A stretch of DNA of 64,000 bases from Escherichia coli (GTDB taxonomy: Bacteria; Pseudomonadota; Gammaproteobacteria; Enterobacterales; Enterobacteriaceae), in assembly GCF_030384885.1 (NCBI RefSeq), contig NZ_CP128613.1; one strand, given 5' to 3'. The translations under genes were made by a program, and so were the position numbers. Position 1 is the first letter of the stretch. Each line of letters begins with the position of its first letter. The notes under the pieces were generated by a model. It did no database searches. It was not told where the DNA came from and was given only the letters and a program-made list of their open reading frames with translations. Positions 2,927 to 59,990 of this stretch are shown piece by piece.

Positions 2927-4353
2927 TGGCATTTGATGATTTACGCAGCTTCTTACAGGCGCTTGATGACCACGGCCAGTTACTGAAAATCAGCGAAGAG
3001 GTGAACGCGGAACCGGATCTGGCAGCCGCTGCCAACGCCACCGGGCGTATCGGCGACGGCGCGCCCGCGCTGTGGTTTGATAATATTCGCGGCTTTATCG
3101 ATGCCCGCGTTGCAATGAACACCATCGGTTCTTGGCAGAACCACGCAATTTCTCTCGGTCTGCCGCCAAACACCCCGGTTAAAAAACAGATTGATGAGTT
3201 TATCCGCCGCTGGGATAACTTCCCGATAGCCCCGGAGCGCCGTGCGAATCCTGCCTGGGCGCAGAACACCGTCGATGGCGACGAGATCAATTTGTTCAAT
3301 ATCCTGCCGCTGTTTCGTTTAAACGATGGCGATGGCGGTTTCTATCTCGACAAAGCGTGCGTGGTTTCCCGCGATCCGCTCGATCCGGATAACTTCGGCA
3401 AGCAGAACGTCGGCATCTATCGCATGGAAGTGAAGGGTAAGCGTAAGCTCGGCCTGCAACCGGTGCCGATGCACGATATCGCCCTGCATCTGCATAAAGC
3501 GGAAGAACGTGGTGAAGATTTGCCAATTGCCATCACGCTGGGTAACGATCCGATCATCACCCTGATGGGCGCCACCCCGCTGAAATATGATCAATCGGAG
3601 TACGAAATGGCGGGCGCGCTACGCGAAAGCCCGTACCCGATCGCCACCGCCCCGCTGACCGGTTTTGATGTGCCGTGGGGTTCAGAAGTGATCCTCGAAG
3701 GGGTTATCGAAAGCCGCAAACGTGAAATCGAAGGGCCGTTCGGTGAGTTTACCGGGCACTACTCCGGTGGGCGCAACATGACCGTAGTGCGCATCGATAA
3801 AGTCTCTTACCGCACCAAACCGATTTTTGAATCGCTCTATCTCGGCATGCCGTGGACCGAAATCGACTACCTGATGGGGCCTGCCACCTGCGTGCCGCTT
3901 TACCAGCAGTTGAAAGCCGAGTTCCCGGAAGTGCAGGCGGTGAACGCTATGTACACCCACGGCCTGCTGGCGATTATCTCCACCAAAAAACGCTATGGCG
4001 GCTTTGCCCGCGCAGTGGGCCTGCGTGCGATGACCACGCCGCACGGTCTGGGTTATGTGAAGATGGTGATTATGGTCGATGAAGACGTTGACCCGTTCAA
4101 CCTGCCGCAGGTGATGTGGGCGCTCTCGTCGAAAGTGAACCCGGCAGGCGATCTGGTGCAACTGCCAAATATGTCCGTGCTGGAACTCGACCCAGGCTCA
4201 AGCCCGGCGGGGATCACCGATAAGCTGATTATCGACGCCACCACGCCTGTCGCCCCGGACAACCGTGGTCACTACAGCCAGCCGGTGGTGGACTTACCGG
4301 AAACCAAAGCCTGGGCTGAAAAACTGACCGCTATGCTGGCCGCACGTAAATAA
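2926..4353 (+). CDS. ecdC: UbiD-family phenolic acid (4-hydroxybenzoate/vanillate-type) decarboxylase subunit C, 475 aa
   Basis: UbiD-family size and sequence character; start overlaps ecdB stop (translational coupling). Confidence 0.8.
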   Translation: MAFDDLRSFLQALDDHGQLLKISEEVNAEPDLAAAANATGRIGDGAPALWFDNIRGFIDARVAMNTIGSWQNHAISLGLPPNTPVKKQIDEFIRRWDNFPIAPERRANPAWAQNTVDGDEINLFNILPLFRLNDGDGGFYLDKACVVSRDPLDPDNFGKQNVGIYRMEVKGKRKLGLQPVPMHDIALHLHKAEERGEDLPIAITLGNDPIITLMGATPLKYDQSEYEMAGALRESPYPIATAPLTGFDVPWGSEVILEGVIESRKREIEGPFGEFTGHYSGGRNMTVVRIDKVSYRTKPIFESLYLGMPWTEIDYLMGPATCVPLYQQLKAEFPEVQAVNAMYTHGLLAIISTKKRYGGFARAVGLRAMTTPHGLGYVKMVIMVDEDVDPFNLPQVMWALSSKVNPAGDLVQLPNMSVLELDPGSSPAGITDKLIIDATTPVAPDNRGHYSQPVVDLPETKAWAEKLTAMLAARK

Positions 4354-4363
4354 GGAGAACAAG

Positions 4364-4600
4364 ATGATTTGTCCACGTTGTGCCGATGAACAGATTGAAG
4401 TGATGGCGAAATCGCCGGTGAAAAATGTCTGGACGGTCTACCAGTGCCAGCATTGCCTTTATACATGGCGCGATACTGAACCGCTACGTCGCACCAGCCG
4501 CGAACATTATCCCGAAGCCTTCCGTATGACGCAGAAAGATATTGATGACGCACCGATGGTGCCGAGCATTCCGCCGCTGCTGGCGGAAGGTAAGCGCTAA
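4364..4600 (+). CDS. ecdD: Small decarboxylase subunit D (BsdD/YclD-like), 78 aa, Cys-rich
   Basis: Small ORF with CPRC ... CQHC motifs immediately after the UbiD gene, as in bsdBCD-type operons. Confidence 0.65.
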   Translation: MICPRCADEQIEVMAKSPVKNVWTVYQCQHCLYTWRDTEPLRRTSREHYPEAFRMTQKDIDDAPMVPSIPPLLAEGKR

Positions 4601-4602
4601 AT

Positions 4603-4631
4603 AAAAGGTCCGATGCCCATCGGACCTTTTT
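4603..4631. terminator. Bidirectional rho-independent terminator between convergent ecdD and ygbN
   Basis: Stem ggtccgat/atcggacc with loop gccc, flanked by AAAA and TTTTT. Confidence 0.7.
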
Positions 4632-4638
4632 ATTAAGG

Positions 4639-6003
4639 TCAAATTACCGCCCATACGCACCAGGTAATTAAGAATCCGGTAAAACCGAGAATGGTCGTTA
4701 ACACTGTCCAGGTTTTCAGACCGTCTGCTACCGACAACCCCAGATATTTGGTCACAATCCAGAACCCTGAGTCATTAATATGTGACGCGCCAAGCCCACC
4801 AAAGCAGGCTGCCAGCGTCACCAATACGCACTGAATCGGATTCAATCCCATCACAGCTTCTGAGAGTAACCCGCCGGTTGTCAGGATTGCTACGGTTGCT
4901 GACCCCTGCGATGCACGCAGCGCCAGTGAAATAATAAATGCGGCTGGTAACAGAGGCAGGTCAATCATTTGTAGCATGTTGGCAAGGGCTTTGCCGACGC
5001 CCGATTCCACCAGCACTTTGCCAAATACCCCTCCAGCACCAGTAACCAAAATCACTACCGCCGCAGTGGGAAGGGCTGAGCCCATAATGTCGCTGGTGTG
5101 TTGTAAGCTCCAGCCGCGACGTAAAGCCAATAACCAGAATGCCAGCACCAGCGCAATCATTAGAGCTACCATTGGTGAGCCGATCAGCTGTAGCGTACCA
5201 AGCAGGGGATGCGAAGGCGGCATCAGTGTTGCGGAAACCGTACCCGCCATGATAATCGCGATAGGAATAACAATTAGCGAGGTGACCAGCGCGACGCCCG
5301 GTGGATTTATTTTATCGCTTAATTTTGTCGCGCCTTCCTCACTGGCCGGAGCCAGTTGCATCTGTTCCAGTACTTCCACCGACATCGCATATTGGCGCTT
5401 ATTGATTATTTTCGCTGCAAAGTAGCCAACAATCCCTACGGGAATAGAAATCGCAATACCGATGATGGTTAGCCAGCCGATGTCTGCGTGGAGTAACCCC
5501 GCTGCGGCGACAGGGCCTGGATGCGGCGGTACCGCCACATGAACAGTTAGCATGATTCCAGCGACAGGCAGGCCAAATTTGAGTGGCGATATTTTGGCAA
5601 CCTTGGCAAAACCGTAAATGATTGGCGCAAGAATAATAAAGCCGACATCAAAGAAGACGGGAATACCGAGGAAGAACGCTGCCAGAGTCAGCGCAGCGAT
5701 AGTTCGTTTGTCACCTAACTTGCGACTGAAATAATTAGCCAGTGACTCTGCACCACCAGAGTGTTCGATCATACGCCCCAGCATAGCGCCCAGACCAATA
5801 ATAATAGTGACGGAACCAAGCACACCGCCCATCCCGGCGATCATCACTTTACCCACTTCGCCCGCCGGTATACCCGCCGCAAGTGCGACTAACAGGCTGA
5901 CGAGGAGCAGAGCAACGAATGGTTGTACCTTTGCCTTGATGACCAGCAGCAACAGCATGATTACGCCAGTTAACGCAATGCATAACAATGTAATTGTGGA
6001 CAT
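4639..6003 (-). CDS. ygbN: GntP-family permease (putative threonate/tetronate transporter), 454 aa
   Basis: Polytopic membrane protein of GntP type; position and length match ygbN. Confidence 0.85.
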   Translation of the reverse strand: MSTITLLCIALTGVIMLLLLVIKAKVQPFVALLLVSLLVALAAGIPAGEVGKVMIAGMGGVLGSVTIIIGLGAMLGRMIEHSGGAESLANYFSRKLGDKRTIAALTLAAFFLGIPVFFDVGFIILAPIIYGFAKVAKISPLKFGLPVAGIMLTVHVAVPPHPGPVAAAGLLHADIGWLTIIGIAISIPVGIVGYFAAKIINKRQYAMSVEVLEQMQLAPASEEGATKLSDKINPPGVALVTSLIVIPIAIIMAGTVSATLMPPSHPLLGTLQLIGSPMVALMIALVLAFWLLALRRGWSLQHTSDIMGSALPTAAVVILVTGAGGVFGKVLVESGVGKALANMLQMIDLPLLPAAFIISLALRASQGSATVAILTTGGLLSEAVMGLNPIQCVLVTLAACFGGLGASHINDSGFWIVTKYLGLSVADGLKTWTVLTTILGFTGFLITWCVWAVI

Positions 6004-53028: not shown

Positions 53029-53310
53029 CACCCTCAAAATTCCTCCTTCACTCCATTGTTTTTTCGCTTTACTCCCGTTCATTCAACTTTAGTCTCCATT
53101 TTTTGCATTACTGCTATCTGTCAGACCTCCGTTTTTCTGTTGATAAAACACTCTTTTTGACGTTTTTACAGACTAATTGAGCGTGAAGTGTGCAAGCGAT
53201 AAAAGTGTGGGAAAAATTGTTTGACTTATAAGTCTCAGAAAGTAATATGTGCGCCACGCAGCGACGATGAGCGATAAACAAGTTCTTCGAAGCACTCGTA
53301 AGAGGCGTGT

Positions 53311-53403
53311 GGTGAGGTGGCCGAGAGGCTGAAGGCGCTCCCCTGCTAAGGGAGTATGCGGTCAAAAGCTGCATCCGGGGTTCGAATCCCCGCCTCACCG
53401 CCA
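53311..53403 (+). tRNA. serV: tRNA-Ser (anticodon GCU)
   Basis: Cloverleaf with long variable arm, anticodon loop cuGCUaa, 3' CCA; read directly. Confidence 0.9.
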
Positions 53404-53406
53404 TTT

Positions 53407-53483
53407 GCATCCGTAGCTCAGCTGGATAGAGTACTCGGCTACGAACCGAGCGGTCGGAGGTTCGAATCCTCCCGGATGCACCA
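53407..53483 (+). tRNA. argV: tRNA-Arg (anticodon ACG), copy 1
   Basis: GCATCCG acceptor stem, anticodon loop ctACGaa, CCA end. Confidence 0.9.
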
Positions 53484-53682
53484 TATTCTCCGAAATCTTC
53501 AGCGATGAAGGTGTCGAAGAGGTGGCGGTACTAACCGCAAGCACCAGGGAGGATAACGTTGCTTTAGCAACGGGCCGAAGGGCGAGCCGTAAGGCGAGTA
53601 ATCCTCCCGGATGCACCATCTCTTACTTGATACGGCTTTAGTAGCGGTATCAAAAAATCTGCAGTAAAGTAAGTTTCCCGAT

Positions 53683-53759
53683 GCATCCGTAGCTCAGCTG
53701 GATAGAGTACTCGGCTACGAACCGAGCGGTCGGAGGTTCGAATCCTCCCGGATGCACCA
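53683..53759 (+). tRNA. argY: tRNA-Arg (ACG), copy 2
   Basis: Identical 77-nt sequence to copy 1. Confidence 0.9.
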
Positions 53760-53955
53760 TATTCTACGAAATCTTCAGCGATGAAGGTGTCGAAGAGGTG
53801 GCGGTACTAACCGCAAGCACTAGGGAGGATAACGTTGCTTTAGCAACGGCCAGAAGGGCGAGCCGCAAGGCGAGTAATCCTCCCGGATGCACCATCTCTT
53901 ACTTGATATGGCTTTAGTAGCGATATCAATATCAGCAGTAAAATAAATTTCCCGA

Positions 53956-54032
53956 TGCATCCGTAGCTCAGCTGGATAGAGTACTCGGCTACGAACCGAG
54001 CGGTCGGAGGTTCGAATCCTCCCGGATGCACC
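53956..54032 (+). tRNA. argZ: tRNA-Arg (ACG), copy 3
   Basis: Identical 77-nt sequence to copy 1. Confidence 0.9.
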
Positions 54033-54231
54033 ATATTCTACGAAATCTTCAGCAATGAAGATATCGAAGAGGTAGCGGAATTAACCGCAAGCACCAGGAA
54101 GGATAACGTTGCTTTAGCAACGGCCCGAAGGGCGAGCCGCAAGGCGAGTAATCCTCCCGGATGCACCATCTCTTATTTGATATGGCTTTAGTAGCGGTAT
54201 CAATATCAGCAATAAAGTAAGTTCTCCCGAT

Positions 54232-54308
54232 GCATCCGTAGCTCAGCTGGATAGAGTACTCGGCTACGAACCGAGCGGTCGGAGGTTCGAATCCTCCCGG
54301 ATGCACCA
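54232..54308 (+). tRNA. argQ: tRNA-Arg (ACG), copy 4
   Basis: Identical 77-nt sequence to copy 1. Confidence 0.9.
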
Positions 54309-54588
54309 TATTCTCCGTAATCTTCAGCGATGATGGCATGGAAGAGGCGATGGTAATCACCGTCTGCTCCAGGGAGGATAACGTTGCGGCAGCAACGGCC
54401 CGAAGGGCGAACGCCAGTGAGTCATCCTCCCGGATGCACCATCTTCTCCAAAAAATCCCCTTCAAAAATATTTCATTTCTAAATAACTATTTTATCCATT
54501 TCCTGAATATTCTTCTCCTTCGCCATCAGCGACAAAATCAAGCAATTACGCTAAAGTAGCGTCATATTTTTCGACTTGCGAGAAGACC

Positions 54589-57217: not shown

Positions 57218-57290
57218 AAAAAGGCCACTCGTGAGTGGCCAAAATTTCATCTCTGAATTCAGGGATGATGATAACAAATGCGCGTCTTTC
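57218..57290 (-). ncRNA. micA: MicA (SraD) small regulatory RNA
   Basis: Minus-strand sequence gaaagacgcgcatttgttatcatcatccctgaattcagagatgaaattttggccactcacgagtggccttttt matches MicA as I recall it; 3' hairpin plus U-tract. Confidence 0.85.
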
Positions 57291-57874: not shown

Positions 57875-57887
57875 TCAATTGAAGAGG

Positions 57888-57917
57888 CCGGGCAGGTGAT
57901 ATCACCGCCCGGTTTTT
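57888..57917 (+). terminator. Rho-independent terminator after luxS
   Basis: Hairpin ccgggcaggtgatatcaccgcccgg followed by TTTTT; abuts the stop of the convergent gene at 57919. Confidence 0.75.
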
Positions 57918-57918
57918 A

Positions 57919-59031
57919 TTACCTGTCAGTCACCCGATATTCCACGCTATGTGCTTCATCAGGTTGAGGAACTTCCAGCCTTGAGGCCATCCGCATCACG
58001 ACCGCTTCAGGAACGGCATACTCGCGCCTGGCATTTTGCTGCTTCCATTGCGCCCATGGCACTTCCAGATAAACGATTTTTACTCGTGCGCCGTAAGCCG
58101 TAAACAGACTGATGAGCTGGCTACGCAGTTGGCGGGTAATGTTCGTTGCATTCCAGATGAACGGCTTTTTCTGGCGTAAAAAAACGCGCGCCTCTTCTTT
58201 TGCCTGTTGCACAATACGCCCGGTCGCGGTTTTGTCGTCCGGGCTGGCATTGATTCGCCGCCGCATATCATCAAGGCTGATAACGTCCATTCCCTGGCAC
58301 TGTTCACTGATATAGCGATCTTTGCCCATACCCGGTAAGCCACACAGCAAAATGACCTCAAAAGGTTCAGCCTCCCAGGGAACAAAATCAGGAGAACTTT
58401 GTTCATGGGTCAGATAATGCCAGCGTGCGGAATCAGACACGAACGAGCGCACTTTTCCCCAACACTGTTGCTCCTGGCAAAATAGCTCGAACAGATCGAT
58501 GCGTTCCAGCATTGATTGCTGATCATGACAATGGCGACCAAGCAGATCGGCACGAGCAAGCAAAGCGAGCAGACGCGTGTCGATACGCATTGCAGCCGTG
58601 AGCAGCAAACGCTCCGGTTCCGGACGTTCTAGTAACCATAGCGGTAACCCATGCAGACGCACCAGTGCAACAATTTGCTCGCGTAGCACGAACGGCGTCG
58701 GGATATCGCGCCATAAAATTTGTCGGGCCGTCAATTCACCCCGACGAGCATGACCAGGAGACTGAATACGTCCGTTTTCCTGCACGGTAGTACTGCGCTT
58801 TTCAACGTCATGCAATAACGCCGCCGCCCATAAAATTTCCTGCTGCTGAGCGGGGAGTTGCTGGAACTCTGGCAGAGCCACGAGTGCATTCAGCACCATT
58901 TCAGTATGCACACCAACGTCGCCTTCACCATGATGCTCCGGGTCTTGCGGCGTATTATGCATATCCTCAACCCAGCTAAAACGCTGGCGTAGCGTCGACC
59001 AGCGTTTGTCGTCGGTAAGTTGCCAAATCAT
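57919..59031 (-). CDS. HD-domain phosphohydrolase fused to a P-loop polynucleotide-kinase-like domain, 370 aa
   Basis: N-terminal HD signature ([10 protein letters not shown] ... LLHDVEK); C-terminal Walker-A-like GLPGMGKD and DVISLDD; not present between luxS and emrB in K-12 as I recall. Confidence 0.6.
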
Positions 59032-59735
59032 GACTGTTCTCCATAAGCGAACTCATGGGCCATCCGCGCCCGTCGCCAGTGGCGTTTCCAGTGCTCGGTG
59101 GTTTTGACATGATTTTTGCGTACATACTTGAAGACGTTATGCGAAAAGTCAGCGACGGAAAACGCATCACTATTCCGGCTGACAATGCCTTCCAGCGTAC
59201 AGGGTTGTCCGGTTTGCGTATCCCAGGGATCGAACGCACCGCGCGCATTGGTCAGCGCCAGAAAATCACGTTGCCAGCTTTTTTCATCATTCCCCGGCTG
59301 CGGGCCGGAGATTTCGGGAACGCAGGGGAAATCAAACAGAGCGGCGTAAAACTGCACCTCTTCCCAGCTCAGCCACATATCCTGGCAGCGAACGGCAAAC
59401 AGATAAAAATCCTGCTCCAGGGCGCGATATTCAATCGAATGAACGGCATAAAGATTTTCACCAAACAACTCCAGATCGCCGAGATCGTTTTTCAGCAGTT
59501 GCCAGCGTTGGCGAATTTTATAGGTCCATGCCGATTGTGTAGGCGCGGCATGGGAACGGGCAAACACGCCGTAGCGGTTAAGGCAGTTATTTTCACCGTC
59601 GAGTTTTTCAGTATGTACCAACTGCGAAATTGCCTGCATATCTTGCCAGTAACTGGCGTTAATGCGGTCATCGCTGGTGGTGCCAGGGGAGAAGGGGTAA
59701 TGCCAGGTTCTCCCGTATTTACGTTGGGTATTCAT
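59028..59735 (-). CDS. Small ATP-dependent nucleic-acid (RNA) ligase-like nucleotidyltransferase, 235 aa
   Basis: Covalent nucleotidyltransferase motifs in order: [41 protein letters not shown]; 4-bp overlap with the downstream gene. Confidence 0.6.
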
Positions 59736-59954
59736 AATAATCCATTATTTTTTGTGTAATAAACGTACGCCCGCGAGGGTGCGAGTTATGGGGTTAAAAA
59801 AAATGTGAGTATCACCCGCGAAAGCGAGGGCGAAGAAAAAAGAGAATTAACAACCTGAGCGAATGCTCAGAACCGGTTAATGGTGAATGGAAGAGTTTGG
59901 AGCGGCGAAAAGATACACCGTTTGAGATGATAAAACAACCGTTTACAGAATGAG

Positions 59955-59980
59955 CAAATAAAAAGGGAGCCGCAGCTCCC
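59955..59980 (-). terminator. Rho-independent terminator after emrB
   Basis: Hairpin gggagc-cgca-gctccc with U-tract on the minus strand. Confidence 0.7.
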
Positions 59981-59990
59981 TTTAACAACC

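Follow-up and report, generated by a model that had tools for sequence, protein, structure and literature searches.

The interval between emrB and luxS on the Escherichia coli chromosome NZ_CP128613.1 (assembly GCF_030384885.1) contains two overlapping minus-strand genes, which encode an RNA-ligase-family protein and, downstream of it, a protein predicted to combine an HD domain with a P-loop polynucleotide kinase domain (HD-Pnk). We analysed these genes within a window of 64,000 nt, which is the whole stretch of DNA under study. The HD-Pnk gene is a single ATG-initiated open reading frame (ORF) at 57919..59031 (minus strand) that codes for 370 aa and ends in TAA, as given by the ORF listing of the window, with the plus-strand translation over the same positions being riddled with stops. 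A preliminary description of this DNA had placed an ORF here without naming a strand, and all the motifs it quoted were found in the minus-strand translation, including DVISLDD and the string quoted for the HD region, which maps to 58798-58818. One database search returned 2265 homologues at E≤1e-5, RefSeq annotates the gene as an intact coding sequence (WP_000638149.1, 'ATP-binding protein'), and comparison with the allele of strain UTI89 showed 36 synonymous and 16 non-synonymous codon differences; together with the AAA_33 match given below, this argues that the ORF is not a chance reading frame.

The ligase gene (235 aa, WP_001097123.1, named 'RNA ligase family protein' in RefSeq) is located at 59028..59735 on the minus strand, and its stop codon overlaps the HD-Pnk start codon in a 4 nt ATGA (59028..59031, minus strand), with a GGAG 9–12 nt upstream, which suggests translational coupling. 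Its comparison with UTI89 gave 33 synonymous and 9 non-synonymous codon differences, and the synonymous excess in both genes is consistent with purifying selection on the pair, which the same comparison indicates to be weaker than that on the flanking core genes. The ligase gene was directly upstream of the HD-Pnk gene and on the same strand in 80/80 related loci, these being the best 80 from a collection of species-representative genomes, with none of the 80 coming from Runella.

Judged from its sequence, the downstream protein belongs to the HD-Pnk family over its full length, joining an HD phosphoesterase at the N-terminus to a 5′-OH polynucleotide kinase of the P-loop type at the C-terminus. 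The putative phosphoesterase domain spans approximately residues 1–215 (58387..59031, minus strand), and carries near-invariant H34, H42, H74-D75 (within LLHDVEK), K78, H94, H127, D162 and R166. The Pfam HD match of the window protein is weak (residues 61–139, E 0.014); when 24 aligned family members were scanned singly, 21 had a Pfam HD match at E≤0.001 (best 1.3e-6), and this, with the conservation of LLHDVEK, bears out the N-terminal HD domain proposed in the preliminary description. The kinase domain occupies approximately residues 222–370 (57922..58368, minus strand), and matches Pfam AAA_33 over residues 226–355 (E 6.6e-32). NCBIfam models matched below threshold were bacterial Pnkp at its kinase end (2e-8), PSTK, the multifunctional CCA addition/repair enzyme over its HD region (6e-5), and HDIG (4.8e-4). 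Structure prediction, which had been put forward earlier as a check, left this domain assignment in place, with the AF2 model having a predicted local distance difference test score (pLDDT) of 91.4 and a predicted TM-score (pTM) of 0.91.

The kinase residues were compared with those of the Clostridium thermocellum Pnkp kinase (CthPnk). In the Walker A motif or P-loop, GLPGMGKD (G231–D238; 58318..58341, minus strand), K237 corresponds to CthPnk Lys21, and D238 takes the position of Ser22, which is essential and is the sole protein ligand of the catalytic Mg2+ (PMC3902929). In D254-D255-M256-R257 of 'ISLDDMRR' (58261..58272, minus strand), D254 aligns with Asp38, which is the general base of CthPnk, and R257 aligns with its Arg41. 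The IWNATN motif (58141..58158, minus strand) has N294 where both CthPnk ('VVDATN') and the Deinococcus radiodurans homologue DRB0098 have Asp, and its T296 falls on Thr80 of CthPnk, a residue in contact with the acceptor phosphate (PMC3902929), while R336 aligns with the lid residue Arg120. Across 141 family representatives (clustered at 50% identity), K237, D254, R257, T296 and R336 of the kinase and H34, H42, H74, D75, K78, H94, H127, D162 and R166 of the HD domain were each conserved in 131–141 sequences, with D254 and R257 each kept in 138. The protein thus has the features that define the family, namely an HD domain with conserved metal-binding His/Asp and a kinase that keeps the catalytic Lys, the general-base Asp and the acceptor Arg. 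The preliminary description had likened the kinase half to polynucleotide kinase or zeta-toxin-like kinases; the matches with CthPnk and the homology to DRB0098 argue for the Pnk type, whereas the Zeta/PezT toxin kinases, which were looked for as closest fold match together with an antitoxin partner, did not emerge in that combination.

The GLPGMGKD motif departs from the canonical GxxxxGK[ST] in that an Asp follows the invariant Lys. This had been called unusual, which is apt with regard to the canonical motif, but within the HD-Pnk family it is the majority state. All but one of the close homologues reaching the P-loop have Asp at this position (the exception having Asn), mostly as GLPGMGKD or ALPGMGKD, and GKD is present in 118/118 relatives from Bacteroidota and in ~78% of distant representatives, the remainder having S, T or N. 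Furthermore, residue 238 (codon 58318-58320, minus strand) is coupled with residue 294 (codon 58150-58152, minus strand) in what looks like a swap within the kinase metal site: in the alignment of 141 representatives, D238 occurred with N294 in 107 sequences and S or T at 238 with D294 in 18, with no sequence having Asp at both (Fisher p 1.7e-18, uncorrected for phylogeny). A crude tree built by the unweighted pair group method with arithmetic mean (UPGMA) shows about 11 changes between the two states, with CthPnk and DRB0098 both in the S+D state. This pattern suggests that the metal site keeps exactly one carboxylate; classic Pnk would draw it from the end of the Walker-B-like strand and most HD-Pnk proteins would draw it from the P-loop, and D238 would then be a Mg2+ ligand. 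Since one carboxylate is always retained, the kinase is predicted to be active, and since GKD is the family norm and covaries with Asn at the Walker-B-like position, the domain does not look degenerate. The equivalent of that position in T4 Pnk, Asp85, is presumably essential. The exchange of residues offers a handle on how the metal site of these kinases is constructed, and seems unreported in the literature covered, with the survey of Burroughs & Aravind 2016 falling outside that coverage.

The partner protein belongs to the ATP-dependent RNA ligase family, with matches to Pfam RNA_ligase (PF09414, E 5.3e-28) and to PHROG RNA ligase families (1.6e-32 and 8e-8), and is Rnl2-like. It carries the covalent nucleotidyltransferase motifs I (KxDGxN), III, IIIa, IV and V, starting with TEKLDGEN (K44) as motif I, and followed by GEN, FYLFAV, EGIVSR and FKYVRK; invariant columns are K44, D46, G47, N49, E93, F113, E182, G183, K203 and R206. 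The PF09414 match spans residues 38–205 of 235, making the protein a minimal ligase consisting of the nucleotidyltransferase domain alone, without room for an N- or C-terminal accessory domain, unlike the characterised Rnl families, each of which has a substrate-binding accessory domain. No solved ligase structure was detected by sequence search or by family-profile search of PDB sequences. A phmmer match to mollusc hemocyanin (E 3e-9) was rejected as the sum of many weak repeat matches, dropping to 0.009 with the family profile, and shows that E-values against repetitive targets can mislead.

The fusion of HD domain and kinase next to a ligase, which the preliminary description did not recognise as an arrangement, is in fact already known from Runella slithyformis (Munir & Shuman 2017, J Bacteriol 199:e00739-16) and from D. 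radiodurans DRB0098-DRB0100. According to PMC6097658, the Runella HD-Pnk has an HD 2′,3′-phosphoesterase followed by a P-loop 5′-OH kinase in one chain of ~365 aa, in the same order as in E. coli, and a putative ATP-dependent ligase ORF lies directly before it, the 3′ end of this ORF running into the start of the HD-Pnk gene, again as in E. coli. The Runella pair is adjoined by a Tpt1 gene and a methyltransferase-HIT gene in the same account, whereas the E. coli locus has only two genes, between emrB and luxS. Full-length family members are present in Emticicia, Dyadobacter, Spirosoma and Larkinella, of the same bacterial family as Runella, and all have GKD; those of Emticicia and Dyadobacter are 54–55% identical to the window protein, with Runella itself being compared by description only. 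The Runella HD-Pnk is also reported to act on DNA 3′-phosphates as well as on RNA ends.

In D. radiodurans, the operon consists of DRB0100 (ligase), DRB0099 (PARG-type macrodomain protein) and DRB0098 (HD and kinase), in that order (PMC1997131), and DRB0098 was named HD-Pnk by Schmier & Shuman 2018, as cited in PMC6300522. The window HD-Pnk is collinear with DRB0098 over residues 5–361 (29% identity, E 3e-31), and the ligase is 36% identical to DRB0100 (E 2e-28), with K44 falling on K40, the residue mutated in PMC1997131. The domain order is shared, as is the placing of the ligase first and the HD-Pnk last in the operon. Deinococcus differs in having a canonical GSGKS P-loop together with Asp in 'WDATT', where E. 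coli has GKD and Asn, in the PARG gene between ligase and kinase, in its megaplasmid location and in the inserts of DRB0098 (413 aa), and its operon is radiation-induced and tied to survival of DNA damage.

Other named systems resemble the pair in part. The kinases of C. thermocellum Pnkp (acting with Hen1) and T4 Pnkp (acting with Rnl1/Rnl2) match the window protein in kinase fold and in the Lys, general-base Asp, Arg, acceptor Thr and lid Arg, and both share with the window pair the logic of healing ends before sealing them. Their phosphatase modules are of the calcineurin type (C. thermocellum) and the HAD type (T4) instead of HD, the kinase comes first in the chain, and C. thermocellum Pnkp has its own ligase domain, whereas the window protein is accompanied by a separate ligase gene. 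The model TIGR04075, which describes bacterial Pnkp (kinase-calcineurin phosphatase-ligase, ~850 aa), scored 32.9 bits against a cut-off of 750, and only over profile positions 9–137 of 851. For the N-terminal half, the best structural and profile match is to the HD domain of CCA-adding enzymes from bacteria, represented by E. coli Cca and by the structures 3wfo/3wfp of related tRNA nucleotidyltransferases, with the window protein lacking the nucleotidyltransferase head of that enzyme and having its HD region joined to a kinase instead. Yakunin and colleagues are said to have found 2′,3′-cyclic phosphodiesterase and phosphatase activities in the HD domain of Cca in 2004.

The E. coli locus is thus an instance of the described HD-Pnk/ligase cassette and no new kind of system, and its HD-Pnk is an uncharacterised and poorly annotated member of a described family; what goes slightly beyond the routine are the question of the ligase substrate, the adjacency to rtcB and prfH in other genomes described below, and the swap between P-loop and Walker-B-like position. 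The cassette is widespread, with 581 cluster representatives of the HD-Pnk family in many phyla (a separate search, at E≤1e-30), yet it is labelled only 'AAA family ATPase', 'ATP-binding protein' or 'poly(A) polymerase'. Homologues in the databases also had names such as 'multifunctional CCA protein', 'predicted kinase' and 'HD domain-containing protein', and none of the names encountered mentioned polynucleotide kinase or HD-Pnk, which points to a systematic annotation gap; the name 'poly(A) polymerase' reflects the common HD region only.

We consider that the bifunctional end-healing HD-Pnk and the upstream ligase make up a repair cassette of two genes that works by 'heal and seal', with a probability of roughly 0.85. 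By analogy with the Runella and Deinococcus enzymes, the P-loop domain would move the gamma-phosphate of a nucleoside triphosphate onto a 5′-OH polynucleotide end, with K237 and Mg2+ stabilising the transition state, D238 serving as protein ligand of the Mg2+ instead of Ser/Thr, D254 acting as general base, and R257 and T296 holding the acceptor. The HD domain, with a transition metal bound by its His and Asp residues, would strip 2′,3′-cyclic, 3′- or 2′-phosphates to leave a 3′-OH. The resulting 5′-PO4 and 3′-OH ends are what a classic ATP-dependent ligase needs, and the translationally coupled ligase, adenylylated on K44, could then seal them, the two proteins presumably being partners either physically or functionally. 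The targets are probably RNA breaks made by metal-independent ribonucleases or ribotoxins, and possibly include dirty DNA breaks.

Several observations weigh against this proposal. The Runella partner ligase formed ligase-AMP and sealed no substrate tested (PMC6097658), and for D. radiodurans the 5′-kinase activity of DRB0098 and the adenylyltransferase activity of DRB0100 were shown, and ligation was not (PMC1997131). Since both studied partner ligases auto-adenylylate yet seal no standard substrate, the 'seal' step proposed here, like the substrate proposed for it, is hypothetical. Mutants in the HD motif of DRB0098 kept 3′-phosphatase activity in an assay contaminated by host phosphatase (PMC1997131), and the link of the Deinococcus operon with resistance to ionising radiation and mitomycin C (PMC6300522) speaks against a role in RNA repair only. 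At the E. coli locus itself, a simple promoter scan found no clear σ70 promoter upstream of the ligase gene on the minus strand, and it is not obvious why E. coli should need a second pathway next to RtcB/RtcA.

The RtcB systems deal with the same type of damage as proposed for the HD-Pnk pair, namely RNA ends with 2′,3′-cyclic phosphate and 5′-OH left by ribotoxins such as colicin E3, from whose cleavage ribosomes are rescued and repaired by RtcB2-PrfH. RtcB joins 3′-phosphate and 5′-OH ends directly with GTP and without end healing, whereas the HD-Pnk route would heal the ends. When the ORFs around the pair were clustered for all 80 loci, 24 of the loci proved to have a gene for an RtcB-family ligase in the same orientation as the pair, and in 21 of these (five from Serratia and 16 from Bacteroidota) rtcB was directly upstream of the ligase gene, at roughly 3100–5300 of each locus, with at most prfH in between. 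The other three loci had rtcB 2.2–2.3 kb upstream or downstream of the HD-Pnk gene. A prfH gene separated rtcB and the ligase gene in 12 loci (half of the 24), and rtcB-(prfH)-ligase-HD-Pnk clusters thus occur in two phyla. The Serratia proteins were identified by NCBIfam as release-factor-H-coupled RtcB (TIGR03073, 584 bits) and PrfH (TIGR03072, 305 bits), and the Bacteroides PrfH scored 306 bits, with the Bacteroides RtcB-like protein being below the cut-offs of the RtcB models. Neither rtcB nor prfH is present at the window locus. The RtcB/PrfH literature searched, which did not extend to the RNA-repair survey of Burroughs & Aravind 2016, makes no mention of adjacent kinase and ligase genes, and the linkage seems unreported there.

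The likely substrate is tilted towards RNA by the adjacency to rtcB and prfH, by the partner being in the RNA-ligase family and by the resemblance of the HD domain to CCA enzymes, and the occurrence of the clusters in Serratia and Bacteroidota leads to the hypothesis that the damage is inflicted by ribotoxins on the translation apparatus. In its specific form, we put this forward tentatively: the pair may be a dedicated repair module for ribotoxin-cleaved RNAs of translation (tRNA, or rRNA within a ribonucleoprotein), working beside RtcB2-PrfH or backing it, with a ligase that has no accessory domain and is active only when complexed with HD-Pnk on that substrate, and with the GKD/N swap marking a kinase metal site that is put together in a different manner. 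A ligase with this requirement would account for the behaviour of the two studied ligases, which adenylylate themselves in vitro without sealing any substrate.

An alternative is that the cassette serves primarily in the repair of DNA strand breaks, with HD-Pnk cleaning the 3′-phosphate and 5′-OH DNA ends left by oxidation or radiation, and the ligase sealing nicks with a helper. The DRB0100-DRB0098 operon is induced by radiation, loss of DRB0098 function makes cells sensitive to ionising radiation and mitomycin C, and the DRB0098 protein can phosphorylate a 5′-OH DNA 25-mer (PMC1997131, PMC6300522), but the partner ligase is in the RNA-ligase family PF09414, the HD half is closest to the RNA-end-repairing HD region of CCA-adding enzymes, 30% of the related loci are linked to the RNA and ribosome repair genes rtcB/prfH, and no LexA-type box was apparent by eye upstream of the ligase gene, where no pattern search was made. 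We therefore regard a primary role in DNA repair as rather unlikely, although it is the strongest of the alternatives.

A role in anti-phage defence or counter-defence, with the pair carried by a mobile island of recent acquisition, is improbable. Such a role would suit an accessory pair found in 18% of E. coli genomes, and HD-Pnk occurs in phages too, as shown by a full-length homologue in a 462-kb uncultured (jumbo) phage (LR756500.1, 24519-25559; 34.6% identity, 94% coverage) and by the end-to-end match of HD-Pnk to PHROG 6931 (function unassigned, 1.8e-16); phage T4 counters the PrrC anticodon nuclease with Pnkp and Rnl1. However, PADLOC 2.0 gave 0 families for HD-Pnk and ligase at E≤0.01, the GC content of the two-gene segment is host-like, no integrase is annotated around the pair, none of the 5426 complete E. 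coli genomes has a match on a plasmid, and no att-like repeats were noticed at the breaks in K-12 homology, where no dedicated repeat search was made. Conservation of the emrB-luxS slot across genera instead points to old vertical residence with repeated loss.

Still less probable is a role unconnected with polynucleotide ends, in which the protein would act on a specific tRNA-linked or small-molecule substrate, like PSTK, KTI12 or zeta toxin, or hydrolyse a nucleotide signal, the latter having been named in the preliminary description as the finding that would overturn its assignment. The acceptor-site residues typical of Pnk (general-base Asp, Arg and Thr) are conserved, the characterised homologue DRB0098 is a 5′-OH polynucleotide kinase (PMC1997131), and synteny with the ligase is obligate; as for signalling, no (p)ppGpp hydrolase, HD-GYP or cyclic-nucleotide phosphodiesterase family was among the Pfam or NCBIfam matches of the window protein. 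Finally, a kinase half that is dead or repurposed through its Walker A Asp, leaving an HD hydrolase with a regulatory domain that binds nucleoside triphosphates, would fit the near-universal GK[ST] of P-loop NTPases and the essential role of CthPnk Ser22 as only protein Mg2+ ligand (PMC3902929), but is scarcely credible given that GKD is spread across close, Bacteroidota and distant relatives in a manner that indicates selection and not decay, that the Asp covaries with an Asn so that one carboxylate is always kept, that the remaining catalytic residues are all conserved, and that GKD is found in all the Spirosomaceae relatives of the Runella enzyme, which is active biochemically.

Within E. 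coli, the pair was present in 999/5426 complete genomes, including UTI89 and O145 strains, always as a single chromosomal copy between luxS and emrB, where it is flanked by the convergent luxS and by the end of the emrRAB operon on the same strand. The window allele is uncommon, with only 26 of the 999 carrier genomes being ≥95% identical. Over the two genes the window is 100% identical to the chromosome of E. coli strain 2013C-4282, whose annotated genes on either side are those of the window. Strain K-12 lacks a segment of 2,112 bp (57878..59989), its homology breaking at 57877 and 59990, and has a 59-nt emrB-luxS spacer only. With roughly one in five complete E. coli genomes having an intact copy under purifying selection, and K-12 providing a natural null background, the question of the substrate is open to E. 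coli genetics. The emrB-[ligase-HD-Pnk]-luxS arrangement was also found in Klebsiella spallanzanii, Enterobacter sp. and Superficieibacter, and in Kosakonia the pair directly follows emrB with luxS farther off. Use of the same slot in several genera suggests that the cassette is old in Enterobacteriaceae and has been lost repeatedly, and this, together with the host-like GC content and the lack of an annotated integrase, led us to reject recent horizontal acquisition. Full-length matches to HD-Pnk in the AlphaFold DB (TM ≥0.9) came from Proteobacteria, Bacteroidota, Cyanobacteria, Actinobacteria, Firmicutes, Planctomycetes, Myxococcota and others.

The region 5′ of the ligase gene (255 nt; 59736..59990, minus strand) contains the emrB terminator hairpin (59983-59962, minus strand), which precedes the ligase leader, and a palindrome, CTGAGC-N4-GCTCAG (CCGGTTCTGAGC-N4-GCTCAGGTTGTT; 59871-59854, minus strand). 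In eight loci from Escherichia, Klebsiella, Kosakonia and Enterobacter, this palindrome is nearly invariant in otherwise divergent surroundings, and its conservation across genera makes it a candidate that may function as operator or attenuator. As the ligase leader had no Rfam match and a fold z-score of only -2.0, we make no claim for an RNA element. At the other end of the pair, between the stop codons of luxS and HD-Pnk, a long GC-rich hairpin (CCGGGCAGGTGAT/ATCACCGCCCGG followed by TTTTT, about 57886..57917) was read from the sequence, and did not come up in the simple scan, which is limited to loops of 3–8 nt; it is likely to be a terminator common to the two convergent genes.

Elsewhere in the window, the MicA small RNA is located between gshA and luxS, as in K-12 (57219-57290, minus strand; Rfam RF00078, 83.9 bits), and a tRNA cluster of the serV-argVYZQ type at ~53300–54400, with one tRNA-Ser and four tRNA-Arg genes in RefSeq, coincides with several spurious overlapping ORFs in the ORF list.

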